From an archaeon (GTDB lineage: Archaea; Micrarchaeota; Micrarchaeia; Anstonellales; Anstonellaceae): a stretch of 32,000 nt of DNA. The translations under genes were made by a program, and so were the position numbers. This document shows positions 997 through 31,846 of this stretch, piece after piece (the stretch's first letter is position 1; every line of letters starts with the position of its first letter). The stretch is taken from contig JAGVIA010000034.1 in assembly GCA_020056305.1 (NCBI GenBank), forward strand, positions 1-32,000. The letters run 5' to 3'. The notes under the pieces were generated by a model. The model was not told the DNA's origin. It made no database searches and was given only the letters and a program-made list of their open reading frames with translations.

Positions 997-3765
997 TTAT
1001 TCAATGAATATGCTTGCCTTGCCCGGCATGGCGTTCGTTGCCTTCTGCGCATGCACGGCAGGCGCCTTGTTTTCAGGCAGCACAACAATCGGGCAGCCAA
1101 ATTCCTTTGACAAGTAGGCAGCTGAGTTATCAAGCGCAACGAGTTCCTGAGTTGCAGACAATGCCTCAACTTTCAGCCCGCCGATATTTTTCATGAGATT
1201 TTCAATCGCCTTCTTTGCCTGCTGCCCGTGCGCTTTCATCTCCGAATCTGCCATCGCAGCCTTCATAGCAGTGCCAAAGTCCCTCTTTTCCACAACTATT
1301 GCGCGCAATTTGCCTTTCCATTCATCCGCAACGTAGAGTGAAATCTTTTTTGCCTGCCCCTCTTTCTTGAGAAGTTTTAATATTGCGGAAATGTCATCCC
1401 GCGTTGCTTGCACGAATTCTTCCCCTCTTTCCAGTGCAGCATCTATTTTCTTCTCATCAGCAGCCGGGAATGCCGCCCCGGCAGCCAATTTCGAATCCTT
1501 CACAAACTTCTTCTTGCCAAGCGTTTCCCAGAATTCCTCTGCCACATGCGGCATTATGGGCGCAATAAGCAGGCACCAGTATTCAAAGAATTCGCGCAAA
1601 GCTGGCTTGTCTGTTCTTTTCAGATACCATTGCAAATCAGAGAAGCTCTCAAAGAGCAATTGCTGGCAGAGGGGGCGCAGCTCAAGTGTTTCAAACAGCT
1701 CCTTTGCCCGCTTAACCCTGCCGTGCAATCTTGAGAGCAGCCATTTGTCTGCAAATTCCAATCGTGTTTTCTTCCCTTCTTTTGAGGCTTGCTCAACCAG
1801 TGCCCGCAAACCCTTCAATCTTCCCATTATTCCTTCAGCAACCGTCCTGTTGAAGTCCGAATCCGATGCCAAATCCGCCCCTGCGACAACCGAGAAGCGC
1901 ACGACATCTGCGCCATACTGCGTTATTGCCTGGCGGATTGGCAGGATATTCCCAAAGCTCTTGCTCATCTTGCTGCCGTCCATGAGCACAAAGCCGTTTG
2001 TGATTATCTGCCGTGGCCAGTGCTTTTTTTCAAAAATGGCAGTGTGTATGAATATCAGGAACACAAGGTGATTGTGTATCAAATCGGTTGCCGAATGCCT
2101 TGAGTCCAGCGGATACCAGTAGAGGAACTCTTCCCGCAGCTTTTTCATTTCGGCAGTCGCTTTTGCATCTCCCTTTCCCAAAAATACGTAGTCGAAGAAT
2201 GCCCCATCCAATTTTCCGGCATCCTCTTTTTTGAGCAAATGCGAAATGGTATAGAATGCCATGTAAATTGTGGAATCTGAGAGCGCCTCAATCATCTGCT
2301 TCTCATCAAACGGGAATCTTGTTCCCAGCCCGCTTGCGCGCGTGCATGCCTTCTCCTTGAGCCAGTCCACTGTGTAATAGTAATCCTGCACTGTCTTTTC
2401 CGGCAGTATTCTCATTTCAGCTAAGCACTCCTTGACCTTTGCCTTCCATTTCGCATCCCCGTAATCGATGAACCATTGGTTTTTCACCATATTTACGGTG
2501 CATTGCGCGCCGCATCTGCAATAGACTGGCCCATTGGACAATTCATACAGTTTCATTGCCTTGCCTTCTGCCACCAAGTCATTGCCGATTGCCTCCTTTG
2601 CCTCAACGCCTTTCTTTCCCTTGTACTTGCCTATTGCCATGACGCCGGTGTGCGCCTCTTTCTTGTAGATGGCACTTGTTGCTTCCTCTGCCTTTGGGTC
2701 GTTCTGGCTCGTTATTTTCATCTGCTCGACTATTTCTTTCGCAGGGAATTGCCCGAATCCAACAAGCGATAACACTTGCACAAGCTCAATCTGCTTGTCC
2801 AAGCCCGCATCTCGCAATGCCAAATAGTCATAGGGCGCATGCGCGGGAACACTCATCACAATGCCGGTGCCTGTTGCAGCATCCACAAACGAAGCTGGAA
2901 ACACTGGAACAAGCTTTCCAGTAAGCGGATTTTTTGCCATCATTTTTAGCAATTCACTTGCTGCAACTTCCTTCTCCACTTTCATTCCCAGCTGCTCCGC
3001 AATCGTTTTTGCAGCTTCTTTTGCCAAATAATATTTTTCGCTGCCTTTCTTTGCAATGACATATTCTGCTTTAGGGTTCACCCAGATGTTTGTGACTCCA
3101 AATAGCGTTTCGGGGCGGTATGTGGAGCAAATCAGATTCCCTCCATCCGCCTCAAACTTGATTACTGTGACTTCCTCAATCTGCGGGTCCACGTCGCCCT
3201 TTGTGTCATGCGCGCCGACAGGGTTCTTGTCCTTTGGGCACCATGGCACAGGGTGCTCGCCCTGCAATATGAGGCCCTGCTCTTTCAATTTTGCAAACTG
3301 CCATTGAATGAACTTGTTGAAGTGCGCGTCATAAGAGTAGAATTTGCGCCTCCAGTCAATCGAGTAGCCCATCTCTTTCATGCCAGCCTCAATTTCCTGC
3401 GAGAAGTAAGTAACAAGGGGCACAGGCTCTGCCAATGAGAGCGCTTTTTCGCGTGGGATGCCATATATTTTCTCAAAAATGCCCAGAAGCTCGTCATCCT
3501 GCTCCTTGAGCCTCCTTGCCATTGCGATAATCGGTGTGCCAGTCACATGGAGCCCCATGGGAAAGAGCACGTTGTGGCCTGTCATGCGCTTGTATCTTGC
3601 GTAGATATCGGTAGTGGTGTAAGTCCTGCCATGCCCCACATGCTGCGGGGAATTGGGATACGGGAATGCTGCCGTTAGGAAGAACTTTTTGCGCTTCTTT
3701 TCAGGGTTTGCCTCAAAGAGCTTTTCCTTTTGCCATTCCTGCTGCCATCTAGCTTCAGACTCCAT
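997..3765 (-). CDS. leuS: leucine--tRNA ligase, archaeal type (922 aa)
   Basis: Full-length ORF. It has a class I HIGH-type motif (PQHVGHGRTY) and a KMSKS motif (GSKMSKSFGN). Length and the N-terminal WQxxWxxxxxFEA signature fit archaeal/eukaryotic-type LeuRS. Confidence 0.95.
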   Translation of the reverse strand: MESEARWQQEWQKEKLFEANPEKKRKKFFLTAAFPYPNSPQHVGHGRTYTTTDIYARYKRMTGHNVLFPMGLHVTGTPIIAMARRLKEQDDELLGIFEKIYGIPREKALSLAEPVPLVTYFSQEIEAGMKEMGYSIDWRRKFYSYDAHFNKFIQWQFAKLKEQGLILQGEHPVPWCPKDKNPVGAHDTKGDVDPQIEEVTVIKFEADGGNLICSTYRPETLFGVTNIWVNPKAEYVIAKKGSEKYYLAKEAAKTIAEQLGMKVEKEVAASELLKMMAKNPLTGKLVPVFPASFVDAATGTGIVMSVPAHAPYDYLALRDAGLDKQIELVQVLSLVGFGQFPAKEIVEQMKITSQNDPKAEEATSAIYKKEAHTGVMAIGKYKGKKGVEAKEAIGNDLVAEGKAMKLYELSNGPVYCRCGAQCTVNMVKNQWFIDYGDAKWKAKVKECLAEMRILPEKTVQDYYYTVDWLKEKACTRASGLGTRFPFDEKQMIEALSDSTIYMAFYTISHLLKKEDAGKLDGAFFDYVFLGKGDAKATAEMKKLREEFLYWYPLDSRHSATDLIHNHLVFLIFIHTAIFEKKHWPRQIITNGFVLMDGSKMSKSFGNILPIRQAITQYGADVVRFSVVAGADLASDSDFNRTVAEGIMGRLKGLRALVEQASKEGKKTRLEFADKWLLSRLHGRVKRAKELFETLELRPLCQQLLFESFSDLQWYLKRTDKPALREFFEYWCLLIAPIMPHVAEEFWETLGKKKFVKDSKLAAGAAFPAADEKKIDAALERGEEFVQATRDDISAILKLLKKEGQAKKISLYVADEWKGKLRAIVVEKRDFGTAMKAAMADSEMKAHGQQAKKAIENLMKNIGGLKVEALSATQELVALDNSAAYLSKEFGCPIVVLPENKAPAVHAQKATNAMPGKASIFIE

Positions 3766-12121: not shown

Positions 12122-12979
12122 ATGAGGCTTGGGTTAATCTACACAATCATAACGCCGGAGAACAAGCTTCTCCTTTCGGCAGCGCAAGCGCGCGGTGTGG
12201 AGCTTGAGCGCATAAGCGATGACTCGATTCTCATGGACGTGCACCGCACAGGTGATGCGGCATCCTTCGATGCCGTATTGCAGCGCTCTTCCAGCTATTC
12301 CCGCAGCCTTTACATCTCACAGTATTTCGAAGAAGCAGGAACGCGTGTTGTGAATTCCTATGCCACACAGAGGTTGTTTGGGGACAAGGCATCCACTTCT
12401 TTTGCGCTTGCAAGGGCAAAAATACGCACGCCAAGGACAATAGTGGCATGTTCACCAGAATCAGCTCGCGCCGCGGCAAGGGAGCTCGGATTCCCGCTTG
12501 TGATAAAACCCCCAATGGGAAGCTGGGCGCGCATGGTGCAACGCATAAATGATAATGACTCACTTGATGCGGCGATTGAGTGCCGCGAGGAAATGGGCAA
12601 TGTCTGGCAGAAGATATATTATTTGCAGGAGTTTGTCAAGAAGCCAGGCCGCGACATACGCGTGTTTGTCGTTGGAAACGAGGCGATTTGCGCAATCTAC
12701 CGCAATTCCACTGAAAAAAGCGGCTGGATTACAAACACCGGCCGGGGCGGCACTGCAAGCAACTGCCCGCTCACGCCCGAAATTTGCGAGCTTGCAATTG
12801 CCGCAAGCTCAAAGCTTGCAGGCGAGGGAATTTACGGCGTTGACATGATGGAAGGCCCCGAGGGGCTCATGGTGCACGAAGTGAACCATACCACTGAGTT
12901 TAGGAATTCCATTGCGCCAACCGGCACTGACATTCCTGGGAAGATGATAGATTTCCTGATTCAACATGCAAAGAGGTAG
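12122..12979 (+). CDS. lysX: RimK-type ATP-grasp ligase LysX/ArgX ([LysW]-aminoadipate/glutamate ligase)
   Basis: It is an ATP-grasp of about 285 aa (FPLVIKPPMGSWARMV, YLQEFV, DIRVFVVG, GVDMME) immediately after lysW, with a GGAGG SD upstream. Confidence 0.85.
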   Translation: MRLGLIYTIITPENKLLLSAAQARGVELERISDDSILMDVHRTGDAASFDAVLQRSSSYSRSLYISQYFEEAGTRVVNSYATQRLFGDKASTSFALARAKIRTPRTIVACSPESARAAARELGFPLVIKPPMGSWARMVQRINDNDSLDAAIECREEMGNVWQKIYYLQEFVKKPGRDIRVFVVGNEAICAIYRNSTEKSGWITNTGRGGTASNCPLTPEICELAIAASSKLAGEGIYGVDMMEGPEGLMVHEVNHTTEFRNSIAPTGTDIPGKMIDFLIQHAKR

Positions 12980-12985
12980 GTTTTG

Positions 12986-14032
12986 ATGATACGAGCAAGC
13001 ATTATCGGGGCATCTGGTTACACTGGCGGCGAGCTTTACCGCCTGCTTATCATGCACCCTGAGGTGCAGGTCGAGCAAATCACAAGCGAGCGCTTTGCTG
13101 GCGAATTTGCGACAAAGATACACCCGAACCTCCGCTCTTTCACGCAACAGAAGTTTGTCTCAGTAAAGGAAATGAAGCGCGACACTGATGTCGTGTTTCT
13201 TTGCACGCCGCATGAGAAGGCAATGGATTATGTTGCGGAATTCATGTCTACTGGCATGAAGATAGTGGATCTGTCCGCGGACTTCCGGCTGCGCAATGCG
13301 CAAACATACGAGCAGTATTACACAAAGCACAGGCACCCCCAGCTTCTGTCGCAGGCAGTGCTTGGCATTCCGGAGCTTCACCGCGAGGAAATAAAGAGCG
13401 CAAAGCTCGTGGGCACCGCAGGCTGCCTCTCGACAAGCGTCATCCTCGCGCTTGCGCCCCTTGTCAAGAATGGATTGATTGACCTTGAGCACATCATTGT
13501 GGATTCCAAAATCGGAAGCGCGGCAGCAGGCGCCGCATTTGATATCTCCACTCATCACCCTGAGAGGCAGGGCGTTGTGCGCTCTTACAAGCCGACCGGG
13601 CACCGTCACACTGCTGAAATCGAGCAGGAAATGGGCCTGCTTGCAGGCAGGCAGGTGCGCGTCGGGCTTACGCCCCATGCCGTTGAGATGGTGCGCGGAA
13701 TAATGAGCACAACCCATTGCTGGCTGCCAAAGCCATTGGCGGACATTGACCTCTGGAAGGCATACCGCGGCTTTTACAAGGACTCGCCATTCGTGCGCCT
13801 TGTGAAGGAAAAGGGCACGCTGTACAGGTATCCAGAGCCAAAGATGGTAATCGGCACGAACTTCTGCGACATTGGGTTTGAGCTTGACCCAACAATGCCA
13901 AGGCTCGTTGTGATGAGTGCGATTGACAACCTTGTGAAGGGCAGCGGCGGGCAGGCAATACAGTGCATGAACCTGATGTTTGGGCTGGATGAAAAAGTTG
14001 GGCTGTGGAGGCCAGGAATGCATCCAATATAA
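12986..14032 (+). CDS. lysY: [LysW]-aminoadipate/glutamate-phosphate reductase (ArgC/LysY family)
   Basis: IIGASGYTGGELYRLL is the NADP site, and GCLSTSVILALAPL carries the catalytic Cys, typical of N-acetyl-gamma-glutamyl-phosphate reductase homologues. The start is set at the ATG at 12986 (the track uses the TTG at 12983). Confidence 0.9.
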   Translation: MIRASIIGASGYTGGELYRLLIMHPEVQVEQITSERFAGEFATKIHPNLRSFTQQKFVSVKEMKRDTDVVFLCTPHEKAMDYVAEFMSTGMKIVDLSADFRLRNAQTYEQYYTKHRHPQLLSQAVLGIPELHREEIKSAKLVGTAGCLSTSVILALAPLVKNGLIDLEHIIVDSKIGSAAAGAAFDISTHHPERQGVVRSYKPTGHRHTAEIEQEMGLLAGRQVRVGLTPHAVEMVRGIMSTTHCWLPKPLADIDLWKAYRGFYKDSPFVRLVKEKGTLYRYPEPKMVIGTNFCDIGFELDPTMPRLVVMSAIDNLVKGSGGQAIQCMNLMFGLDEKVGLWRPGMHPI

Positions 14033-14107
14033 GCGAGCAATGAAGAAAAAAGGCATTCATTGGCAGGCAAATTGACATTGAATGCGCATATTGAAAGGCG
14101 GTTGCAT

Positions 14108-14896
14108 ATGATTGTCGTGAAAATTGGTGGAAGCATATTTGGCAGGGAGGAAAAGCTCCTTGCAGACATCGCCAGCCTTGGGCAGCAGATCATTCTCGTT
14201 CATGGCGGCGCTGCCGAAACGACAAAGCTTGCTGAAAAAATCGGCGTGCCTGTGCAATACATTACCTCTCCCGACGGCTTCAAGTCCAGGCACACCACCC
14301 GCGAGATGATGGATATTTTTCTCATGGCAGTGGGCGGGAAAATCAACAAGACTCTGGTTGCGCGCCTTCAGAAGCTTGGCGTAAATGCCGTTGGCATCTG
14401 CGGCATGGATGGCAGGATGCTCTTGGCGCGAAGAAAGATTCTCACAAGCATCGAGGATGGCAAGACAAAAATGGTGCGTGATGACTATACTGGCAAGATT
14501 GAGAAGGCGAATGCAAATCTGCTGCAAGCATTGCTAGGGGGCGGCTTTACGCCTGTTGTTGCACCCATTACGCTCTCAGAGGAATCCGAGCCTCTGAATT
14601 CAGATGGTGACAGGACAGCTGCGATGATAGCAGTGGCAGTGGGTGCGCAAAAGCTCGTGCTGCTCACGGATGTGGATGGGTATTTTGCAAATTTTCCAAA
14701 TGATTTTGTGCCAAATATGAATGCCGGTGAAATTGAAAATGCAATGAAGACGGCAACTGGGGGCATGAAGAGGAAGCTGCTTGCCGCAAAGGAAGCAATA
14801 GCTGGTGGAGTAAGTGAAGTGATTCTTGCAAATGGGCAAAACGATGCGCCCCTATCAGCCGCACTGAATGGTGCAGGAACACACCTATCGAAGTGA
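14108..14896 (+). CDS. lysZ: [LysW]-aminoadipate/glutamate kinase (ArgB/LysZ family)
   Basis: MIVVKIGGS...ILVHGGA...NSDGDRTAAMIAVAVGA..LVLLTDVDG are amino-acid-kinase family motifs. Thermus LysZ also starts MIVVK. The track's TTG start at 14060 is probably too long. Confidence 0.85.
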   Translation: MIVVKIGGSIFGREEKLLADIASLGQQIILVHGGAAETTKLAEKIGVPVQYITSPDGFKSRHTTREMMDIFLMAVGGKINKTLVARLQKLGVNAVGICGMDGRMLLARRKILTSIEDGKTKMVRDDYTGKIEKANANLLQALLGGGFTPVVAPITLSEESEPLNSDGDRTAAMIAVAVGAQKLVLLTDVDGYFANFPNDFVPNMNAGEIENAMKTATGGMKRKLLAAKEAIAGGVSEVILANGQNDAPLSAALNGAGTHLSK

Positions 14897-14903
14897 TTGA
14901 GGG

Positions 14904-14922
14904 TGTGCGCATTTTGCGCACA
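14904..14922 (+). promoter_or_regulatory. intercistronic hairpin between lysZ and lysJ
   Basis: TGTGCGC-ATTTT-GCGCACA is a 7-bp perfect stem, extendable with G-U pairs. It is flanked by a duplicated AAGTGATTG (14891-14899, which contains the lysZ stop, and AGTGATTG at 14929-14936, which acts as the SD for lysJ). Confidence 0.4.
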
Positions 14923-14938
14923 TCACAAAGTGATTGCA

Positions 14939-16114
14939 ATGGACGCACAACAAATAATGGAGCTTGAGAAGAATTTCGAAGTGCCGGTCTACCCCAAGCG
15001 CAACATGGTGCTTGCGCGCGGGCAGGGCACGCGCGTATACGATAGCAACGGCAAGGAATACATTGATTGCGCAGCAGGTGTCGCAGTAGCGGTGCTTGGG
15101 CACAACCATCCGGCACTTGTGAAGGCAGTAAGCGAGCAGGCAGGCAAAATGATTACCTGCTCATCTTCGTTCCAGAACGAGCCGCGCGCAAGGCTGTTGG
15201 AAAGGCTTGCAGCAGTTGCAAAGCCGCTGGGCTTATCGCGCTCGTTCCTTTCCAATTCGGGCACAGAGGCAATTGAGGCTGCCATGAAATTTGCGCGCGC
15301 CTACACAAAGAAAAAGAATTTCATCGCATGCATGAGCGGCTTTCATGGCAGGACAATGGGTGCCCTCTCGCTTACTTTCAAGCCTGCATACAGGGAGCCA
15401 TTCGTGCCACTTGTGGAGAGCGTGAAGCACGTGCGTTATGGGGATGCAAATGCGCTGCGCGATGCAATAGATGAAAATACTGCAGCCGTTTTCCTCGAGT
15501 GCATACAGGGCGAAGGCGGGGTTCGCATGCCGCCAGATGGCTATCTGCAGCAGGCGCGCGAGATTTGCACACAAAAGGGCACACTGCTCGTCATTGACGA
15601 GATACAGACTGGCATGGGCAGGACTGGGAAGCTTTTCGCATCCGAGCATTTTGGCATCAAGCCTGACATGGTCACGCTTGCAAAGGGCATTGCTGGCGGC
15701 TTGCCGATGGGCGCGACAATAGTGCGCGAAGAGATTGCGCAATCGCTAAAGCCATTGCAGCACGGAAGCACGTTTGGCGGAAATCCGCTGTGCTGCGCCG
15801 CATCACTTGCGGTGTTTGACACGATAGAGCGCGATCATCTTGTGCAGAATGCCGCAGATGTTGGCGCATATTTCATGAACGGACTTAAGAGGATGGCGGC
15901 TGAGAAAAAGGACATCCGCGAAGTGCGCGGCATGGGGCTGCTCATTGGCATGGAAATGAAGAAGCCTGTCAAGGATTATCTCATGGGCTTGGCAGAGCGC
16001 GGTGTGATTGCGCTTTCAGCAGGTGACACAGTGCTTCGCTTCGTACCGCCGATAATATTCTCACGGGAAGATGCGGACAAGGTTCTTGCAGCGCTAAACG
16101 AGGTTGTTGGATGA
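14939..16114 (+). CDS. lysJ: class III PLP aminotransferase, ArgD/LysJ family
   Basis: SNSGTEAIEAAMKFAR, LVIDEIQTGMGRTGK and TLAKGIAGGLPMGA (PLP Lys) are acetylornithine-aminotransferase-type motifs. The start is moved to the ATG at 14939 behind a GTGAT SD. Confidence 0.9.
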   Translation: MDAQQIMELEKNFEVPVYPKRNMVLARGQGTRVYDSNGKEYIDCAAGVAVAVLGHNHPALVKAVSEQAGKMITCSSSFQNEPRARLLERLAAVAKPLGLSRSFLSNSGTEAIEAAMKFARAYTKKKNFIACMSGFHGRTMGALSLTFKPAYREPFVPLVESVKHVRYGDANALRDAIDENTAAVFLECIQGEGGVRMPPDGYLQQAREICTQKGTLLVIDEIQTGMGRTGKLFASEHFGIKPDMVTLAKGIAGGLPMGATIVREEIAQSLKPLQHGSTFGGNPLCCAASLAVFDTIERDHLVQNAADVGAYFMNGLKRMAAEKKDIREVRGMGLLIGMEMKKPVKDYLMGLAERGVIALSAGDTVLRFVPPIIFSREDADKVLAALNEVVG

Positions 16115-17163
16115 CTGAAATGCAATTCCTACTGGATTTGGTTCGTGCCTACAGTCCCTCAAGGCACGAGGCACCGGCGGCAAAAGTCCTCCATGCGCAG
16201 ATGCAGAAGCTTGGCTTTGAGCACTCCTGGATAGATGAGGCAGGCAATGCTGTTGCAACAAACTGCGCACGCAACGAGCCAATAGACTTGCTGATATTCG
16301 GGCATATTGACACTGTGCCTGGGCAGCTTGCGGTGCGAGAGGAAAATGGCAAAATATTTGGCAGGGGCGCGGTGGATGCCAAATCCCCGATGGCAGCATT
16401 GCTTTTTGGCGCTGCAAAGGCAAATGTTGATTACAATGTTATGGTTGCAGGCGTGGTGGAAGAGGAAATCACCACTTCAAAGGGCATACGGCATCTTCTC
16501 ACCTATTGCAAGCCCAAGATGGCGATTTTAGGTGAGCCGTCAAACACCAATGGCATCACTATTGCATACAAGGGCAGGCTTGTGATTGAAGGGAAGATGC
16601 ATGGCCAGTCCATGCACTCTGGCATGAGAGAGGAGAATCCTATTGAGCGCACATTTGAGTTTTACCAAACTCTAAGGCATGCATTCCCCCAGCATGGCAC
16701 TTTTGATTCTGTCATTATGAACATGACGCATGTGCATGCGGGCACGCGCGAAGTGCTAAACGTCGTGCCATCAGAGCTTGATTTTGACATTGATGTGCGC
16801 TATGCGCCTGGCACAAGCGCGCATGACATTGAGAAAAAGGTGCGTGAGCTTATGCCGCGCAACGTGCATATCACTGTAAAAGAGCAGCTTGATGGCTATG
16901 GAATCGAGGTCAATCATCCCCTTGTGCGCGCAATGGTGCCTTCGATGCGCGAGCACGGGCTTGCGCCGCGCTATGTGAAGAAGAGCGGAAGCGCGGACAT
17001 GAATATCACCGGGCCTGCGGGCATTCCAACAATCGCCTACGGGCCTGGGGACTCAAAGCTTGACCACACTGATTCAGAAGTTGTGGATATTGCGGATTAC
17101 AAGAAGGCAATCGAAGTTGCGGCATCCACAATGAAGCGGCTGAAAGGCGAGCTTTCAAAATAA
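16111..17163 (+). CDS. lysK: [LysW]-lysine/ornithine hydrolase (M20 peptidase, ArgE/LysK family)
   Basis: It is an M20 metallopeptidase (LLIFGHIDTVPG, GRGAVDAKS, VVEEE). The start overlaps the lysJ stop (ATGA). It is the last gene of the W-X-Y-Z-J-K order. Confidence 0.85.
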   Translation: MTEMQFLLDLVRAYSPSRHEAPAAKVLHAQMQKLGFEHSWIDEAGNAVATNCARNEPIDLLIFGHIDTVPGQLAVREENGKIFGRGAVDAKSPMAALLFGAAKANVDYNVMVAGVVEEEITTSKGIRHLLTYCKPKMAILGEPSNTNGITIAYKGRLVIEGKMHGQSMHSGMREENPIERTFEFYQTLRHAFPQHGTFDSVIMNMTHVHAGTREVLNVVPSELDFDIDVRYAPGTSAHDIEKKVRELMPRNVHITVKEQLDGYGIEVNHPLVRAMVPSMREHGLAPRYVKKSGSADMNITGPAGIPTIAYGPGDSKLDHTDSEVVDIADYKKAIEVAASTMKRLKGELSK

Positions 17164-25062: not shown

Positions 25063-28011
25063 TCACGCTCCAGTTGCAATGCAAAAGTTATTGTTGCACC
25101 GTGCCAACGATCCGCAATCAGCATGTATCGTGCACGGCAGTCTGCATGCGTCAGTATTCGTGGCGGAATCATGGTGACAGATTAGGGGTGCGGGGCAATC
25201 AGCGGGCCCTGCGCATGGCCTGACGCAGTTCGAGTCTTGGTTTATGTATTGAGCATTGCAAGGATGTGGCGGAGTGCCGAAAACCCTCATGGGGTAATAT
25301 GCGCATCTCATCGTGCCAGCATAATTCGCGCATACCCCGTTGCAGCAGTCCGAATTGCCACTGCACGTTCCAGGGAAAGACTTGCATTTTGTGCAGCCAT
25401 TGTTCCATCCACAGACGCCCGATGCGCACTCGCTGCTCCATTCACCTGGATTCGTACATGCGGGTGCCGCAGGGGTTACTCCAGAGAACGTGACGAGTCC
25501 GGCAGGATTGCACACAGTGCATTCCGCATAAGGCATGGAACTAATGCTGTATTCCACATCCAGGTTGAAGCCCATGCCGCCGCGGCAGAAATCCCCCGCA
25601 TCGATCTGTATGGTATTGACTGCTCCAAATCCATGATTCACATATGGGGTGATGTCATAAGGTCCGATGTAACAGTTTTGGCATAATGGCCCCCTGCCGC
25701 AGCTGTCAAATACGCGTAGCTGGTCATTTACATATACTCCGCCATAGTCGTCTACATTGATGTTCTTCAGCTTGACAGTCGTAAGCCTTATGGTTGGTGC
25801 GCTCGTTATTGTGAATTTGTATGCAGCATATGGCGCCCATGCTGTACCTCCCCAAACGTGAGTGGTTGTTGTGCAACAGCCGCATGTTCCTGCGTTGCAA
25901 ACATAAATAGATGGAACGCAGCAGTCGCTATTCCCGTTCGGGCAGCCACCGCCGCTTCCGGAACAGCAATTCAATGCAAACGTCGCAAGGTTGTTCGCCT
26001 CGCTGATTTCATTCTGTATCACATTTGGGTTGTCAGCATTCGCCCGTATTGTCTTCGGGCCGGGCGTTGTGCAGACTGCTAAAACTCCGGTGTTTGGCGC
26101 AGATGCGCCTGCCGCAAGCGCCACAACGGAGATAGGATAGCTTGCCTGCAAGTTGAAAGTCATCCCAGAGCTTGCCGAATCAACAAGTGTGGTGGATGCA
26201 GGCGCACCGCCATCCCCATCATTGGACGTTCCGACATTCAGGGCAAACGCATTCCCAACTACTTGGGTGGAGCTAGGCAGCGGCCCCACAAAACTTGCAA
26301 CCATGTCTGGCATTGCAGGCTCAATACATTCGAATGATGCGCTCCAATCCGCGTTGTTCCCCTCGTTTTCTTCAACATTATTCTCAGATGAATCGGCAAT
26401 AAGGCTCAATGTGTAGCTTCCTGCGGTGCTTGGGCACCTGACAGCATAAATCCATCCGCCGTCATCCCCACCTGCGGGTATTTCCATGTTCACAAAATGG
26501 TTCGCCTGCGTCTCTCCGTCCAGCAGCACGCCCGTATAGGACGGTTCCGATGCGCCATATCCGATGTTTCGCGTGTAAATAGTAGCTTCAAATTCCGAAT
26601 TCACTTCATGTTGGATGCTAAAATCCCCGGTTGCGTCTGCCACAAGGTCGGGCTGCGTTGTCAGAATGCATTCGAACGGGTATGCCTGGATGTTGTTTGC
26701 CTCGTTGCCCCCCTCATTCACCCGATCAACCCCGCCTGCATTTGCAGTAATCGTTAGTTCATGCGGCCCGGCATCTCCGCACTGCATTCTAACTTGTTGT
26801 GCAAACGACTCTGGGGACGGCAGCTCCTGCACGGTGAAGGGATTTTCAAGCACATCATCATTGCTATCAAGCAATTCGACCGGCATTCCATCAACATCTA
26901 TGCGCGTTTGCGACGGCCCTGCATCGCCCGGGCCATTGTTGCGTGTCAGAATCGTAATTTCAAAAAGTGAGCCGGCAGGATGCCCTCCGACCACGTCCCC
27001 TTGCAAATATGCCTCGAGGTCAGGGAATAGCTGCGGTGGCATCTCACACACACCCTCCAAATTGCAAACATAGCCAATGCAGCAGTCATGATCATTCTGG
27101 CAGTCGATGTCGCTGCCAGGAAGTATGCAGCAGAATTCATTTCCGTTTGCATCAGATTCGCAAGCCTGCCCGCCGCAGCATTTGTTGGCTTCTGGGTCAG
27201 GGTCGCAGGGATTCCGCGCAGACAAGCAAGATTGGCACGTGCCCAACACTGCATCGCAAACCAGCGTGCCCGAAGGGCAGCAGTCCGGACTATCTGGGTC
27301 ACATTCATAGTCGATGCCCCCGTATGGCACGCACTGCCCGTAATCCTGCAAATTCTCATCTGTTTGGCATGCAGTGCAGGAAGAAACAAAGCAGTCGCAA
27401 TCAGGGCAATAGTTGTCAGAATTCCAGTCGCACGTCTCTCCATAGTCGCACTGTCTGTTTCCGCAGTGCTCGCAAATATTGTTCAGGCAGACCTTGGGAG
27501 TGCAGCATATCCCCTCCCCGCAGGCAGCGCACCCTTCCTGCTCCTGCGCACTGCACCTTCCAAACAGATTCACAGTTCCTGTTTCAGTGCGCTCTGCGCC
27601 ATCGATGCCAAGATAGGTTATTGTGACCTGATGCTCATAATTGCCGCCGGGCTGGCAGGGCAGCCCGGTGTCAAAGACAAGAGTCTTGCGGCTGCCGGGC
27701 GCAAACAGCTCGCCAGTTGGCCCTCCAGACACAAGATTTGCCTGCTTTCCGTCAAGCGCCATTGATTTGAAGCGCAATCTGTCCTCTCCAGTGTTCTGCA
27801 AAACAGCAACAAAGCCGCCTGCAGGCGTTTTGGTGTGCTCCAGCATGCCAAACGGGTTTGCGTTGCCTTTCCAGTACGTGTCGCTGTGCGTGTATTTTGT
27901 TTCCGCACTAAGCCCCGGCACGTCAAGGAGCGCACCTGCGACGGCAAGCACAATGATAAGCACAACTGCAAGGAGAATGGTATATTCAGTTGCCGTCACG
28001 CCGCGCATCAT
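25063..28011 (-). CDS. giant secreted cysteine-rich protein A (982 aa): class III/prepilin-like signal + pilin-like N-domain + knottin-like Cys modules + 3 CARDB-like domains + PA14-like beta domain + C-terminal Cys modules
   Basis: The N-terminus is MMRG|VTATEYTILLAVVLIIVLAVAG (basic-Gly, Glu at +5, hydrophobic helix). Residues 34-152 are homologous to protein B. I hand-counted 74 Cys. C-C-CC-C-C units lie at aa 227-259, 262-294, 295-322, 683-710 and 876-903. CGNRQCDYGETCDWNSDNYCPDC lies at aa 183-205. CARDB-like units start at PDLEAYL (330), PDLVADA (454) and PDMVASF (568), each ending ..N.(V/I).E..E.NN. At aa ~715-830, YKFTITS...NVDDYGGVYVNDQLRVFD resembles PA14. Confidence 0.85.
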   Translation of the reverse strand: MMRGVTATEYTILLAVVLIIVLAVAGALLDVPGLSAETKYTHSDTYWKGNANPFGMLEHTKTPAGGFVAVLQNTGEDRLRFKSMALDGKQANLVSGGPTGELFAPGSRKTLVFDTGLPCQPGGNYEHQVTITYLGIDGAERTETGTVNLFGRCSAQEQEGCAACGEGICCTPKVCLNNICEHCGNRQCDYGETCDWNSDNYCPDCDCFVSSCTACQTDENLQDYGQCVPYGGIDYECDPDSPDCCPSGTLVCDAVLGTCQSCLSARNPCDPDPEANKCCGGQACESDANGNEFCCILPGSDIDCQNDHDCCIGYVCNLEGVCEMPPQLFPDLEAYLQGDVVGGHPAGSLFEITILTRNNGPGDAGPSQTRIDVDGMPVELLDSNDDVLENPFTVQELPSPESFAQQVRMQCGDAGPHELTITANAGGVDRVNEGGNEANNIQAYPFECILTTQPDLVADATGDFSIQHEVNSEFEATIYTRNIGYGASEPSYTGVLLDGETQANHFVNMEIPAGGDDGGWIYAVRCPSTAGSYTLSLIADSSENNVEENEGNNADWSASFECIEPAMPDMVASFVGPLPSSTQVVGNAFALNVGTSNDGDGGAPASTTLVDSASSGMTFNLQASYPISVVALAAGASAPNTGVLAVCTTPGPKTIRANADNPNVIQNEISEANNLATFALNCCSGSGGGCPNGNSDCCVPSIYVCNAGTCGCCTTTTHVWGGTAWAPYAAYKFTITSAPTIRLTTVKLKNINVDDYGGVYVNDQLRVFDSCGRGPLCQNCYIGPYDITPYVNHGFGAVNTIQIDAGDFCRGGMGFNLDVEYSISSMPYAECTVCNPAGLVTFSGVTPAAPACTNPGEWSSECASGVCGWNNGCTKCKSFPGTCSGNSDCCNGVCANYAGTMRCAYYPMRVFGTPPHPCNAQYINQDSNCVRPCAGPADCPAPLICHHDSATNTDACRLPCTIHADCGSLARCNNNFCIATGA

Positions 28012-28032
28012 CAGTTAGGCTTCAAAAACAAA

Positions 28033-28040
28033 GTTTATAA
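28033..28040 (-). promoter_or_regulatory. TATA box of protein A gene (TTATAAAC on minus strand)
   Basis: It lies 22 nt upstream of the first ATG (28011) with no SD in between, which implies a leaderless or very short leader mRNA. The same box and spacer are duplicated upstream of protein B. Confidence 0.55.
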
Positions 28041-28160
28041 GGAAAATGGCACTGCACTTGCGCGGGCTCTTTTCCTCCAGCAGTGTTCTTATCTGAAAAA
28101 TATCGGCGCGGGGCGCAATGTCCTGCTAAAAAAATTGCCTTGATGCGTGGGCTGTTGACC

Positions 28161-31058
28161 CTATTGCCCCGTTATTACCAAGGTTGGGACATAGCGGTCC
28201 GTAGTGGTGCCATCCCCAAGCTGGCTATAGTCATTTTGTCCCCAGCATAACGCCTTATCGTCTTCCCGTATGGCACACGTATGATGACCTCCGGCGCTTA
28301 TGGCAGTATATGTGTCGTCCCCGGCAATGGGCGTGGGCACCAGCCTGTCCGTGCCAGATGTGTCATCCCCAATCTGGCCGTTGGAATTGTATCCCCAGCA
28401 TAAGACCTTGCCGTCTTCCCGTATGCCGCACACATGTTCACTTCCGGCTCTTATGGCAGTATATGTGTCGTCCCCGGCAATGAGCGTGGGCGTCAAACGA
28501 GCAAAACGGTTGCCATCACCAAGCTCGCCATAGTTGTTGTATCCCCAGCATAAGACCTTGCCGTCTTCCCGTATGCCGCACGTATGCAATGCTCCGGCGC
28601 TTATGGCAGTATATGTGTCGTCCCCGGCAATGAGCGTGGGCGTCAAATGATCAACACGGGTGCCATCGCCCAGCGCGCCAGCGTCATTTAATCCCCAGCA
28701 TAAGACCTTGCCGTCCGAAGCGCGCATACCACATGTATGCTGATATCCGGCGCTTATGGCAGTATATGTGTCGTCCCCGGCAATGAGCGTGGGCACCAGC
28801 CTGTTCGTGCCAGATGTGCCATCACCAATCTGGCCGGCATGATTGTCTCCCCAGCATAAGACCTTGCCGTCTTCCCGTATGCCGCACGTATGATAACTTC
28901 CGGTGCTTATGGCAGTATATGTATAGTCCCCGGCAATGAGCGTGGGCGTCAATTTATGGACAGTGGTGCCATCACCAATCTGGCCGGCGCCATTTAATCC
29001 CCAGCATAAGACCTTGCCGTCTTCCCGTATGCCGCACGTATGATAACCTCCGGCGCTTATTTCACTATACGCTGCACTGCATTGCTGGTTTGAATTGCAG
29101 AAGAAATAGGAGCAGCACTCATTGCCTGTTGGGCAGGATGCGCCCTCTTCTGTTAGGCAGAGTGTGCATGCAGGAGAGCCTTCACTGAGATCGCACCAGT
29201 AACCGTCGCAGCATATATCACCACCACAGGAGATGGGGTTGCAGTCCTGCGCGCAGTTCGCGCAGCTCTCGCCAGAATCACAGATTTCATTGCCGCAGGC
29301 GGATGCCATGTCCATGCATAGGAACGACTCGTCCACCAAAGACCATGCACAAATCAGCCCCTGCTCCGCGCAGCAGTTTGCCGAGTTGCCATCTTCACAG
29401 CTGATGCCCTGCCCTTTGCAGTTGCTTATGATATTCCAAGGTGCGCGGTTGTTTCCTGTGTTTGGTTCGGGCACCACGCTAGCGCCGTCGGCATAATTGA
29501 CATATGCAACAAGCGCAACCTCTTCTGTTGCACCGGAAACTGACGGGCATGTTGTTTCGACATCCCAGCTCAATGATTCGCCCGGCCTAATGACGTCGAA
29601 GGGGGAGAGTTCGCGCATGGACATCTCAGTGCCCTCCGCATCAATCCTGAGGAGGCGAACAGGATAGTGAAACCCATCCCGGTTGAAAATGCCAGTCCCT
29701 ATGTTTGTTGCGGTTATTGTCATGATGATGGGATCACCGGAAAAGCATGAGACTGTACCTAAAAGAGAAACCTCAAGGTCAGGCGTGCCGCCCTCGCAGA
29801 GGTGGGATATTACATTGCATATCATGCCTTGTCCCGGGCAGCAGGGGTGGCCGACATTGCACGAATTGCCTTCGAGCCCGCAATCACCACCGGCGGGGGG
29901 AAGGAATGGCGGAGCGCATTTTTGGCCTAAGTCATCGACATCCAGGCACGTCATGCCAGGATATCCGCAGCATTGCGCGGGCAAATCGCACGCGGCGCCC
30001 TGCACCGTGCAGATCTGGCACTTGTTGGTATCACGATTGCAGGAAAATCCAGTGGTCTCGCTGCAGCAGTCGTTATCATTTGCGCAGTCGCCGCCCGGTG
30101 CAGATGGGCATGCTGCGCATCGCCTGATGGGACTGTTGGAATTGCAAATGAGGCTGCCGCAGCAGTCGTTATTGCCTCCACAGCTATTGCCTGCCGCTTT
30201 GCAGCAGAGCGCAGGTTCGCCCTCGCTCTTGCTTTCGCACCTGCCAGTGCAGCAGCTTATAGGGTTGCTGATGCTGCAGGACTCCCCGAGCAGCAAACAA
30301 ATATCAATCTCTGCCGTACAGGTCTCGCCTTCGTAACAGTCCAATCCTTCGCAGCAGTTTCCATCCGCGTCGCATTCCTGCCCCTGCGCCGGCAAGGTGT
30401 CGCATGTTCCGGTTAGCGTATTGCACGACTGGCATGCCTCCACGCAGCAGTCATTTGTCGCGGCAGGGCAGGCATCGCAAAGCTCGTCGCAGATGCCGTT
30501 GCCGCACGTCGTGCAGAAGAAGCCATTTTCATCTTCCCCGCAGACATTCGGGGTGCAGCAAGTCACGCCGCCCCCGCATCGCAGGCATCCTTCCGGAACC
30601 TCTGCCAAGCACTGCCCATAAATGGGCACGCCACCGGTCTGGGTGTGCGGCGTCCCCTGCGCATCCTGATAGCCAAACACCACGCTGTGTTCGTAGTAGG
30701 TGCTTCCCGGCGGGCATATGCTGGCATCTGTCAAAGAGAGCGCTTTCCTGCTGCCCGGCGCAAGAAGCACGCCATCGCCCGAAATGGCAAGGCGCTCGCC
30801 ATCAAGGCGTATCTCAGTGACCTTTATCCTGCCAGTGCCCGTGTTCTGGAGCACGCCTGTGAAAACGCCCGGCGCCTCCGTATGCTCGAGCAGGGCAACC
30901 GGATCCGCATCGTTTTTCCAGTACGAGTTGCTCTGCGCGTATTTTGTATCAGAAGCAATTCCCGGCACGTCAAGGAGCGCACCTGCGACGGCAAGCACAA
31001 TCACGAGAACAACTGCAAGAAGGATGGTATATTCAGTGGAAGTTACGCCGCGCATCAT
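28161..31058 (-). CDS. giant secreted cysteine-rich protein B (965 aa): class III/prepilin-like signal + pilin-like N-domain + >=8 knottin-like Cys modules + 1 CARDB-like domain + six RCC1 repeats
   Basis: The N-terminus is MMRG|VTSTEYTILLAVVLVIVLAVAG. I hand-counted 88 Cys. C-C-CC-C-C units lie at aa 219-247, 254-285, 286-314, 317-347, 350-381, 393-421, 547-581 and 634-660. CGNGICDELCDAC lies at 185 and CGNEICDSGESCANCAQDC at 588. The CARDB-like domain covers aa ~425-547. In aa 664-965 the unit (Y/H)HTCGIREDGKVLCWG.N..GQ(I/L)GDGT......PT.I is repeated six times, which is the RCC1/BLIP-II blade signature. Confidence 0.85.
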   Translation of the reverse strand: MMRGVTSTEYTILLAVVLVIVLAVAGALLDVPGIASDTKYAQSNSYWKNDADPVALLEHTEAPGVFTGVLQNTGTGRIKVTEIRLDGERLAISGDGVLLAPGSRKALSLTDASICPPGSTYYEHSVVFGYQDAQGTPHTQTGGVPIYGQCLAEVPEGCLRCGGGVTCCTPNVCGEDENGFFCTTCGNGICDELCDACPAATNDCCVEACQSCNTLTGTCDTLPAQGQECDADGNCCEGLDCYEGETCTAEIDICLLLGESCSISNPISCCTGRCESKSEGEPALCCKAAGNSCGGNNDCCGSLICNSNSPIRRCAACPSAPGGDCANDNDCCSETTGFSCNRDTNKCQICTVQGAACDLPAQCCGYPGMTCLDVDDLGQKCAPPFLPPAGGDCGLEGNSCNVGHPCCPGQGMICNVISHLCEGGTPDLEVSLLGTVSCFSGDPIIMTITATNIGTGIFNRDGFHYPVRLLRIDAEGTEMSMRELSPFDVIRPGESLSWDVETTCPSVSGATEEVALVAYVNYADGASVVPEPNTGNNRAPWNIISNCKGQGISCEDGNSANCCAEQGLICAWSLVDESFLCMDMASACGNEICDSGESCANCAQDCNPISCGGDICCDGYWCDLSEGSPACTLCLTEEGASCPTGNECCSYFFCNSNQQCSAAYSEISAGGYHTCGIREDGKVLCWGLNGAGQIGDGTTVHKLTPTLIAGDYTYTAISTGSYHTCGIREDGKVLCWGDNHAGQIGDGTSGTNRLVPTLIAGDDTYTAISAGYQHTCGMRASDGKVLCWGLNDAGALGDGTRVDHLTPTLIAGDDTYTAISAGALHTCGIREDGKVLCWGYNNYGELGDGNRFARLTPTLIAGDDTYTAIRAGSEHVCGIREDGKVLCWGYNSNGQIGDDTSGTDRLVPTPIAGDDTYTAISAGGHHTCAIREDDKALCWGQNDYSQLGDGTTTDRYVPTLVITGQ
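28164..29069 (-). repeat. six tandem ~150-153-nt intragenic repeats encoding the RCC1 blades
   Basis: The anchor string CCGG(C/T)(G/T)CTTATGGCAGTATATGT recurs on the plus strand at 28291, 28444, 28594, 28747 and 28900, with a degenerate copy at 29050 (spacing 150 or 153 nt). Long identical stretches such as CCCCAGCATAAGACCTTGCCGTCTTCCCGTATGCCGCAC occur in several units. Confidence 0.85.
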
Positions 31059-31079
31059 CAGTTAGGCTTCAAAAAGAAA

Positions 31080-31087
31080 GTTTATAA
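31080..31087 (-). promoter_or_regulatory. TATA box of protein B gene (TTATAAAC on minus strand)
   Basis: The position (22 nt from the ATG at 31058) and flanks (CAGTTAGGCTTCAAAAA.AAAGTTTATAA) are the same as upstream of protein A. Confidence 0.55.
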
Positions 31088-31210
31088 AGCGAATGCCGGC
31101 ATGTTTGGGTTGAGGCGCCAAAAGCGTGTTCCGGGCGTCGCTTGGGGCAAACGCATGCAACATACTCTTTTTTATATGTTCTATAACTCATTATACTTCA
31201 GGTGTTTTCT

Positions 31211-31846
31211 ATGGCTACTATAAGGAAGAATGCATTTTTCGGCGCACTGCTGATGTGCGGCATCATCGTAATTGGTGCGCTGGCTCCTTTTGCCGCGGGC
31301 GAACGGTTCACAAACGCCCAGCTTTACAGCCCAATTATTGCGGATGACAACAATTTCAACTATGCAAACCCATACAACGGATACTGCCAGATTCTATCAA
31401 GCGAACGGATCGTCCGCAGATTCTTCCCATTATGCATAAATCTCCTTCCGGCAGGCGCAAACTGCCGCCTCGGGCTGGTTTGCCAATCTGGCGTGTGCGA
31501 GAATGGAACTTGCCTGCCTTTGGAGATATGCGCATCTGCGCACGAAGCGTGCGAGTCAGAAGCGTGCTGCCCCAGCAACACGTGCGTTGCAAACGGAATT
31601 GACATGTGGCGCATCTGCTGGCCGGATTCGCAATGCAGGGGAACAAATATCCAATGCGCCAGCTCATCAGAGTGCTGCCCCGGCTCAAGCTGCATCCCCT
31701 CTGACGGGGAAACAAGCTTTTGCTGGCCGGATTCGCAATGCAGGGAATTCGGCCCATGTGCAAGCTACTCGGACTGCTGCCCCAACTTCCAATGCCTGCT
31801 CCCATACCCGAACGACGGGAGCGGCGGCATGTGCGGCAGATACTAG
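31211..31846 (+). CDS. secreted small cysteine-rich protein C (211 aa): Sec-type signal + 3-4 tandem knottin-like modules
   Basis: An AGGTG SD lies 7 nt before the ATG at 31211 (the track starts at a GTG at 31202). The signal is MATIRKNAFFGALLMCGIIVIGALAPFAAG. The modules are CASAHEACESEACCPSNTCVANGIDMWRIC, CRGTNIQCASSSECCPGSSCIPSDGETSFC and CREFGPCASYSDCCPNFQCLLPYPNDGSGGMC, joined by CWPDSQC. The gene is divergent from protein B. Confidence 0.75.
   Translation: MATIRKNAFFGALLMCGIIVIGALAPFAAGERFTNAQLYSPIIADDNNFNYANPYNGYCQILSSERIVRRFFPLCINLLPAGANCRLGLVCQSGVCENGTCLPLEICASAHEACESEACCPSNTCVANGIDMWRICWPDSQCRGTNIQCASSSECCPGSSCIPSDGETSFCWPDSQCREFGPCASYSDCCPNFQCLLPYPNDGSGGMCGRY

Follow-up and report, generated by a model that had tools for sequence, protein, structure and literature searches.

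What kind of protein begins like a small archaeal pilin and then continues for some 800 residues of Cys-rich and other domains? The question is raised by two adjacent genes, A and B, in a 32,000-nucleotide stretch of archaeal DNA (positions 1 to 32,000 of contig JAGVIA010000034.1, to be referred to as the window). Gene A (25063..28011, minus strand) encodes a protein of 982 residues with 74 Cys, in which a pilin module is followed by a Cys-rich array, three CARDB domains, a β-rich domain without assignment and a C-terminal Cys-rich region. Gene B (28161..31058, minus strand) encodes a protein of 965 residues with 88 Cys, in which the pilin module is followed by Cys-rich arrays, a CARDB-like domain and an RCC1 propeller. 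A third gene, C (31202..31846, plus strand), is divergent from B and encodes a smaller protein with 25 Cys, of 214 residues from a GTG start or 211 residues from an ATG three codons in. An initial annotation of this DNA had given the two adjacent minus-strand open reading frames and the Cys totals of A and B; both agree with our recount, and the 211/214-residue frame of C is present as well. We consider it probable, though well short of certain, that an archaeal Tad/Epd-like pilus has A and B as its modular (chimeric) minor pilins or tip adhesins, in which case both proteins would be cleaved, incorporated into a filament, positioned at its tip and used in adhesion.

The N-termini of A and B read MMRGVT(A/S)TEYTILLAVVL(I/V)IVLAVAG, as had been annotated. 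Identity between the two proteins is 55% in the first 160 residues and 44% in the first ~330, beyond which the sequences diverge, and by this similarity A and B are paralogs. The pilin module of A covers residues 1-153 (27553..28011, minus strand) and consists of a four-residue leader, MMRG, a predicted cleavage site between Gly and Val, Glu and Tyr at positions +5 and +6, a hydrophobic helix, and a β-sandwich closed by C119 and C153. Codons 1-4, which encode the leader, occupy 28000-28011 in A and 31047-31058 in B. The module of B covers residues 1-150 (30609..31058, minus strand), and it is to the A module, across the aligned first ~160 residues, that the 55% identity applies.

Against 1.84 billion representative proteins, a profile built from the first 160 residues of A and B yields 734 relatives at E≤1e-3, of which 140 have E≤1e-10. 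The relatives are mostly stand-alone proteins of 148-175 residues that align end to end (profile positions ~3-155) and stop where the domain in A and B stops. The suggestion that the ~120 residues after the signal form a complete small pilin is thereby borne out, as most of the 734 relatives end there. The relatives start with [KR]-G-Q-G-A-T-E-Y-L-V-L-L-A-V-V-L and have the landmarks S..YW, N and G..C in common; some of them carry the source label 'UPF0333 family'. The domain of A and B is 25-38% identical to the small pilins and retains their conserved disulfide pair as well as E+5/Y+6, and the relatives share the two cysteines that match C119 and C153 of A. The class III signal model PF04021 matches 72 of 91 aligned family sequences at E≤0.01. 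The family profile also finds archaeal filament proteins in the PDB, namely the type IV pilus of Pyrobaculum calidifontis (8fk7, E 7e-5) and the Aap pilin of Sulfolobus acidocaldarius (8q30, E 1.4e-4).

The structure of the pilin module was predicted with AlphaFold2 from a 91-row alignment, with a pLDDT (predicted local distance difference test) of 92.7. In the model, residues 8-50 form a helix with a kink at 30-33, and ten strands make up a β-sandwich. Foldseek matches it best to an archaellin (9eq7), the Aap pilin (8q30), the P. calidifontis type IV pilus (8fk7) and FlaF/FlaG, with E values of 2e-5 to 2e-4. The values for 9eq7, 8q30 and 8fk7 are between 2e-5 and 7e-5, with a global template modelling (TM) score of only 0.3-0.4, which probably reflects a different orientation of the modelled helix. 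Other searches added little. Word-indexed homology searches with the N-terminal domain, with the Cys region of B and with a module-pair profile returned nothing, a scan of genome contigs with the A/B N-terminal patterns found no relative, and NCBIfam gave no matches for A, B, C or the small pilins. By homology and predicted fold, the first ~155 residues of A and B are a complete archaeal type IV pilin.

In the relatives, members of this pilin family are found beside genes for pilus assembly. A metagenome scan found 80 loci with 161 open reading frames of the family, up to seven per locus. In locus L073, genes for an ATPase (582 residues), a 296-residue protein and a 366-residue protein are followed by a family pilin (phmmer E 1e-19 to the A N-terminus), and Pfam identifies the three genes before the pilin as T2SSE (E 9e-37) and two T2SSF. 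The gene order is the same in L080. In L066, the T2SSE-T2SSF-T2SSF set is located ~3 kb from three tandem family pilins, while L062 has the three-gene set near the end of a short contig and L071 has a part of the set, cut by the contig end. One ATPase with two separate TadB/TadC-like proteins is the layout of Tad/Epd-type systems. The search for a pilus ATPase, platform and peptidase proposed in the initial annotation has therefore found T2SSE and two T2SSF beside family pilins in metagenome relatives, but none of these genes in the 32-kb window itself.

These pilus loci are compact (L066, 9392-17499; L073, 1725-8181; L080, 9248-18096), with T2SSE, two T2SSF and pilins; in L066 and L080 the family pilin frames number up to seven per locus. 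Among the pilins is a second, more divergent type (MSKGQTALEYLVTYGW...), which adjoins the platform genes. Just upstream of the pilus ATPase gene of L073, and divergent from it, lies a gene for a large protein of 519 residues (2134-3693, minus strand) in which a PF04021 signal (E 2.3e-4) is the only domain recognised; the protein may be a minor pilin or an adhesin.

The non-pilin part of A and B follows the β-sandwich and is dominated by short Cys modules. We defined the module by the pattern C-x4-9-C-x4-8-CC-x2-8-C-x3-14-C and counted matches without overlap. This gives 5 modules in A, 9 in B and 3 in C, 17 together, where at least 5, 8 and 3 had been claimed. In 2,000 shuffles within blocks of 100 residues, the mean count was 0.07-0.23 and the maximum 3, and the observed counts were never reached. 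The module pattern is thus not a by-product of Cys richness, as shuffles that keep the local composition fall short of it, and chance clustering of Cys was rejected on the same ground. Outside the window, among ~3,900 open reading frames in the 80 other loci, the pattern is present in four, three of which are pilin fusions.

In A, the first Cys-rich array (residues 161-322; 27046..27531, minus strand) has three C-C-CC-C-C modules, at residues 227, 262 and 295, preceded by a unit of another kind, CGNxxCDxGExC. A lone module, CSGSGGGCPNGNSDCCVPSIYVCNAGTC, is located at residues 683-710 (25882..25965, minus strand), and residues 876-982 (25066..25386, minus strand) comprise a further one, CKSFPGTCSGNSDCCNGVCANYAGTMRC, and the C-terminal Cys-rich region, with a weak match to DUF7107 (E 0.0032, below the cut-off). 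In B, the first array (residues 158-421; 29796..30587, minus strand) contains six tandem modules with linkers of 2-11 residues, and the second (residues 547-660; 29079..29420, minus strand) contains three modules and a CGNEICDSGESCANCAQDC unit. The three modules of C are at residues 110-211 (31529-31834). The N-terminus of C is hydrophobic and, as judged from its sequence, of the Sec type and not a class III signal. A 30-nucleotide repeat, 93% identical, is present within gene C at 31611-31640 and 31716-31745, and encodes the C-WPDSQ-C junction between knottin-like modules. The second recurring Cys unit, in full CGNxxCDxGExCxxCxxDC, is found at residues 183-201 of A (27463-27408) and at residues 185-205 and 588-606 of B. 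The unrelated family member P0091 has it too, in the form CGNGFCELNEASSCSGDCP; neither Pfam nor the PDB gave a match to this unit. PDB sequence searches with the C-terminal Cys-rich end of A and with the first Cys-rich segment likewise found nothing.

To what known fold do the modules correspond? We aligned 42 modules, taken from A, B and C and from other members of the family, and the resulting profile matches 84 PDB sequences at E≤10. All 60 of the 60 matches listed are peptides of the inhibitor-cystine-knot type. The best among them is AcaTx1 (E 6.6e-5), and the others include Xt3a, heteropodatoxin-2, cyriotoxin, hainantoxins, conotoxins, asteropsins and Ptu-1. The best alignments of modules with toxins agree at non-Cys positions as well (G5, DCC and SGL). 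AlphaFold2 was run on residues 284-349 of B, which contain two modules, with a 33-row alignment, and gave a model with a pLDDT of 81.6 and a β-hairpin at the C-terminal end of each module. Of the top 50 matches that Foldseek gives for this model in the PDB, about 45 are knottins, with target-normalised TM scores of 0.6-0.75 and root-mean-square deviations of 1.4-2.7 Å over 30-37 columns. They include ω-grammotoxin, Hm1a (1.5 Å for 31 columns), Pn3a (1.4 Å for 30 columns), JzTx-34, SGTx1, psalmotoxin, MCoTI-II and EETI-II. The knottin likeness proposed in the initial annotation is supported by the PDB profile and by a predicted fold that comes to within 1.4-2.7 Å of spider toxins, although the Foldseek E values are not significant. 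The Cys modules look like inhibitor-cystine-knot peptides, with the cystine-knot connectivity itself putative.

It is also conceivable that the modules have some other small disulfide-rich spacer fold, Dickkopf/colipase-, granulin- or EGF-like, and resemble toxins through Cys spacing alone. This would affect the modules only. The best Foldseek E value is 0.38 and no match reaches 0.001, which can be expected for domains of ~30 residues. The Cys-rich domains of the Dickkopf proteins Dkk1 and Dkk4 are also among the top Foldseek matches, and there are weak Pfam matches to Dickkopf_N and Granulin. The Pfam family Toxin_12 matches 18 of the 42 modules at E≤10, with a best value of 3.5e-4, but its cut-off is reached by none (16.9 bits for the first module, as compared to 21 bits), and AlphaFold is possibly biased toward toxin folds that it has already seen. 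On the other hand, the PDB matches listed are all of the inhibitor-cystine-knot type and the best of them agree beyond the Cys, the model superposes closely on some 45 knottins, and a C-terminal β-hairpin is predicted in each module as in these peptides. We regard a non-knot fold as a doubtful alternative, to be taken seriously all the same.

The modules alternate with larger domains. In A, residues 330-682 (25966..27024, minus strand) form three Ig-like CARDB domains, matching PF07705 in three stretches (E 1.7e-15; 57.4 bits against a gathering cut-off of 22.7). In B, the CARDB-like domain initially proposed is sub-threshold (residues 425-545; 29424..29786, minus strand), with a Pfam E value of 0.13 and a BLASTP E value of 0.026 to the CARDB region of A. 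The RCC1 propeller of B is clear. It occupies residues 664-961 (28176..29069, minus strand) as a six-blade RCC1-like β-propeller, matching PF25390 with 231 bits against a cut-off of 150 (E 2.9e-68) and RCC1 and RCC1_2 in six stretches each. The blades are 79-85% identical in DNA, with a period of 150/153 nucleotides (28203-29069), which suggests a recent expansion or homogenisation of the propeller repeats.

The remaining large domain of A, at residues 713-875 (25387..25875, minus strand), had been described as PA14-like. No Pfam family matches residues 700-880 at E≤10, and a profile of A and the paralog P0002 has no sequence match in the PDB, so the PA14 identity was rejected. The domain is 36% identical to the equivalent region of P0002. 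Among the Pfam families suggested for A and B at the outset, PF07705 was thus found in A and RCC1 in B, while PF07691 (PA14) was not found, nor was PF04021 in either protein.

The architecture is not limited to A and B. Among the best 150 family matches, the members longer than 900 residues are A, B, P0002 (1035 residues, 84 Cys) and P0005 (1340 residues, 74 Cys). The records place each of these four on one contig of 44,452 bp, and they are therefore almost certainly paralogs on the contig that holds this window; P0002 and P0005 were accordingly rejected as independent orthologs. This locus probably encodes four or more giant paralogous pilin fusions, of which two lie beyond the 32-kb window. 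P0002 has a mosaic structure, being B-like over residues 3-554 and A-like over residues 454-977 of A. A small family of mosaic paralogs suggests diversification of binding specificity. Smaller fusions are found elsewhere. Of the best 150 family members, 23 (185-700 residues) have Cys-rich tails of several kinds, and in P0009 (296 residues), P0067, P0138 and L063 the pilin is followed by two to four C-C-CC-C-C modules. P0138 is on an archaeal contig with ribosomal protein genes.

These features can be combined into a model of how A and B might function. A prepilin peptidase would cut the four-residue leader after Arg-Gly, and the N-terminal hydrophobic helix, with Glu at +5 and Tyr at +6, would dock in the filament core as do those of the ~150-residue family pilins. 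The β-sandwich would complete a normal pilin body, and the ~800-residue extension would project outward from the C-terminus of the pilin. The strings of ~28-residue, three-disulfide knottin-like modules would probably serve as a rigid, degradation-resistant stalk or as ligand-binding beads. They would alternate with CARDB Ig-like domains and lead to a terminal binding domain, the RCC1 propeller in B and the unassigned domain with the Cys-rich end in A. Given this bulky cargo, A and B are probably low-abundance minor pilins at the pilus tip. Such tip subunits could act as adhesins for a surface, or for a host cell if the organism is a DPANN episymbiont.

A bolder version of this model holds that the ~28-residue units are genuine cystine knots arrayed on pilus-tip subunits, where they serve a DPANN episymbiont as variable, degradation-proof ligands that latch onto or block surface or membrane proteins of the host, a 'venom peptide on a stick', with the four-gene mosaic providing host-range variation. 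Taken as a whole, we think it unlikely.

An alternative to pilus subunits is that A and B are membrane-anchored surface adhesins, in which the pilin-like N-terminus serves only for export and anchoring, or for a short pseudopilus stub, and the Cys/CARDB/RCC1 cargo is displayed on the cell surface. There is a precedent in the Sulfolobus bindosome, with its sugar-binding proteins that carry class III signals, and the very large cargo of A and B would suit a surface protein. Several observations weigh against the pilus reading, and some of them also bear on this point. The N-termini of A and B do not match PF04021 at E≤10, their sole match in the signal region being to Flp_Fap (E 0.14), and membership of A and B in the pilin family was for this reason established by whole-domain homology and not by the motif model. 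The class III signal that had been annotated is present in outline, with a short basic leader ending in [KR]-[GA] (MMRG followed by VTATEYTILLAVVLIIVLAVAG in A, with Ser at +3 in B, in register with the family), Glu at +5, a ~20-residue hydrophobic stretch and homology to a class III pilin family, but it lacks the PF04021 match and the Gln at +1. The +1 residue is Gln in 276 of 287 family sequences (96%), and Glu-Tyr occupies +5/+6 in 274 of the 287, whereas +1 is Val in A, B and P0005, Ala in P0002, and His and Ser in P0087 and P0146, which are other long cargo-bearing members. Gln at +1 may be required for EppA-type cleavage, and the deviation may change or abolish processing (PMC3875500). 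The giant paralogs may thus be processed differently, and Val or Ala at +1, together with the possible need of EppA for Gln, is the main argument for proteins that are anchored or differently processed. Moreover, the 32-kb window contains no type IV pilus machinery or prepilin peptidase gene, and Micrarchaeota proteins with CARDB domains and β-propellers have been described as surface-layer components (PMC5498576). All the giant forms among the best 150 matches appear to come from this single contig, and the full architecture was found in no independent genome. Against mere anchoring, A and B have kept the whole globular pilin domain, with 25-38% identity to the small pilins, the disulfide pair and E+5/Y+6, which an anchor would not need, and there is a continuum of sizes from small pilins with one to four Cys modules to the giants. 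Anchored adhesins are, in our view, a rather unlikely description of A and B.

One could also regard the proteins as polyprotein precursors, from which the tandem units are freed by proteolysis as toxin-like or antimicrobial peptides directed at the membranes of a host or competitors. The module profile does match ion-channel toxins, the putative Sec-type secreted protein from gene C has three modules but lacks a pilin part, and secreted proteomes are known to include proteins with tandem Cys-rich repeats (PMC6262176). However, linkers are in many places as short as 0-2 residues, a protease site that recurs was not seen, large CARDB and RCC1 domains lie between the modules, and the proteins start with a pilin and not with a pro-peptide. 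This explanation is very improbable. The reading of A and B as modular minor pilins or tip adhesins, which takes account of the intact pilin body, of its small relatives and of the assembly genes beside them, is the one that we favor.

A 225-nucleotide direct repeat, 82% identical, is located at 27824-28048 and 30871-31095 and covers the 5′ coding ends of A and B together with 37 nucleotides upstream. A TTATAAA box (28034..28040, minus strand) lies in this duplicated segment, 23-29 nucleotides upstream of the A ATG, and a TTTATAAA box (31081..31088, minus strand) lies 23-30 nucleotides upstream of the B ATG. We infer that the TTATAAA box before each ATG marks duplicated archaeal promoters, separate for A and B and giving near-leaderless transcripts. 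The rest of the window contains archaeal housekeeping genes, for LeuRS, an MFS transporter, riboflavin genes, a LysX-type lysine/arginine cluster, ferritin, SecD/SecF, PurH and an NMNAT-like cytidylyltransferase. A phage, plasmid or other mobile-element origin of the locus was rejected, as all assigned flanking genes are housekeeping genes and the GC content is only slightly raised. No tRNA genes or Rfam families were found in the window. The contiguous cluster at 12122-17163 (a LysX-like ATP-grasp protein, semialdehyde dehydrogenase, amino-acid kinase, class III aminotransferase and M20 peptidase) constitutes an operon of the LysW type for lysine/arginine biosynthesis, which is noteworthy in a putative DPANN-type genome. 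The closest matches of the LeuRS among species-representative genomes are from an uncultured archaeon (54% identity) and a Candidatus Micrarchaeota metagenome-assembled genome (50%). The source organism is probably a Micrarchaeota-related DPANN archaeon, a placement that is tentative.

To our knowledge, knottins are regarded as essentially eukaryotic. If the cystine knots in A, B and C are true ones, no knottin domains would, as far as we know and in the literature searched, have been described in Archaea before them. A confirmed fold would make the knottin scaffold a repeat domain in a prokaryote, which bears on whether this fold is ancient or has been invented repeatedly. It would also provide a new natural library of knottin sequences, a class of peptides prized in drug design for their stability. 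Little is known of how ultra-small DPANN archaea recognise their hosts and stay attached to them, and A and B offer a concrete candidate that can be tested, namely a pilus subunit whose binding end is defined.

The closest parallel to A and B is in bacteria. Modular pilins are common in bacteria, where a survey counts more than 1,200 proteins with 264 architectures. Among them are PilB, with a vWA module, and PilC, with a lectin module, of Streptococcus sanguinis; the vWA module of PilB mediates adhesion, and PilB could be modelled only at the pilus tip. Multi-domain modular pilins are also described there in ultra-small bacteria of the candidate phyla radiation, the most extreme case cited having 860 residues (PMC8179133). 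Like these proteins, A and B consist of a small complete pilin module onto which non-pilin modules have been grafted by way of a short linker (after C153 in A and C150 in B). In comparison with the 860-residue bacterial example, A and B have 982 and 965 residues and their paralogs 1035 and 1340. Unlike the bacterial proteins, which have the N-methylation motif IPR012902, they carry an archaeal PF04021-type signal and an archaeal-type β-sandwich, and the Pfam scan lists no bacterial N_methyl-type match for A or B (IPR012902 itself was not run). With this archaeal/Flp-type signal, they are an archaeal analogue and not members of the bacterial modular-pilin set. Their cargo is dominated by knottin-like arrays, of which there is no mention in the available part of the bacterial survey (PMC8179133).

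In the pilin part itself, A and B are closer to the Epd-type pilins (EpdA-E and MMP1685 of Methanococcus maripaludis; PF04021, also DUF361; UPF0333) and to Flp/Tad pilins. They share with them a short basic leader ending in Gly, Glu at +5 and a hydrophobic helix, and with Flp the Tyr at +6, and family relatives are linked, as in Tad and Epd systems, to an ATPase and two separate TadB/TadC-like T2SSF genes. The M. maripaludis pilins, with G-1/Q+1/E+5, are processed by EppA (PMC3875500). In contrast to Epd and Flp, A and B have Val at +1, do not reach the Pfam model and carry ~800 residues of cargo, and their pilin body of ~150 residues is larger than the 60-75 residues of the Flp/MMP1685 type (PMC3875500).

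The Cys modules share the spacing C-x6-C-x5-6-CC-x3-4-C-x4-10-C and the DCC..GL.C signature with knottins, as known from spider, cone-snail, sea-anemone and sponge toxins, squash trypsin inhibitors and double-knot toxins, and their predicted fold superposes on Hm1a, Pn3a and JzTx-34 at 1.4-1.8 Å. However, those knottins are free secreted peptides of ~30-40 residues, whereas the modules here are internal to archaeal proteins of ~1,000 residues, in arrays of up to six. Homology and convergence of modules and knottins cannot be told apart from ~28 residues.

Among archaeal surface proteins, the substrate-binding proteins of the Sulfolobus bindosome carry a class III signal on large non-pilin proteins, with the signal and helix only and no pilin globular domain. 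A and B are like them in that a prepilin-type signal would place a large functional protein on the archaeal surface, and unlike them in having a complete pilin globular domain. Bindosome loci are mentioned in PMC4858521. In the cultured Micrarchaeota symbiont Mia14 there are two type IV pilus systems and a single FlaK-like peptidase, as well as surface proteins with CARDB domains and a β-propeller that are strain-specific; all of these are proposed to function in host contact (PMC5498576). The combination of CARDB domains and a β-propeller is shared with A and B, which are probably from a related lineage (LeuRS identity of 50-54%). The Mia14 proteins are, however, described as surface-layer components, with no mention of a pilin N-terminus or of knottin-like arrays (PMC5498576).

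The initial view that this is not a described system was thus too strong, given the bacterial modular pilins (PMC8179133) and the CARDB and β-propeller surface proteins of a Micrarchaeota symbiont (PMC5498576). In the literature searched there is no precedent for knottin-like arrays in archaea, for knottin-bearing archaeal pilins or for Cys-rich DPANN pili of this kind. A functional module grafted onto a pilin is already known, as are CARDB and β-propeller surface proteins in Micrarchaeota. A and B would carry the modular-pilin principle from bacteria to archaea and to a far larger cargo. What appears to be new is that the pilin body which carries the cargo is of the archaeal PF04021 type, that the cargo is so large, that the locus is a mosaic of paralogs and, above all, that knottin-like modules form tandem arrays.

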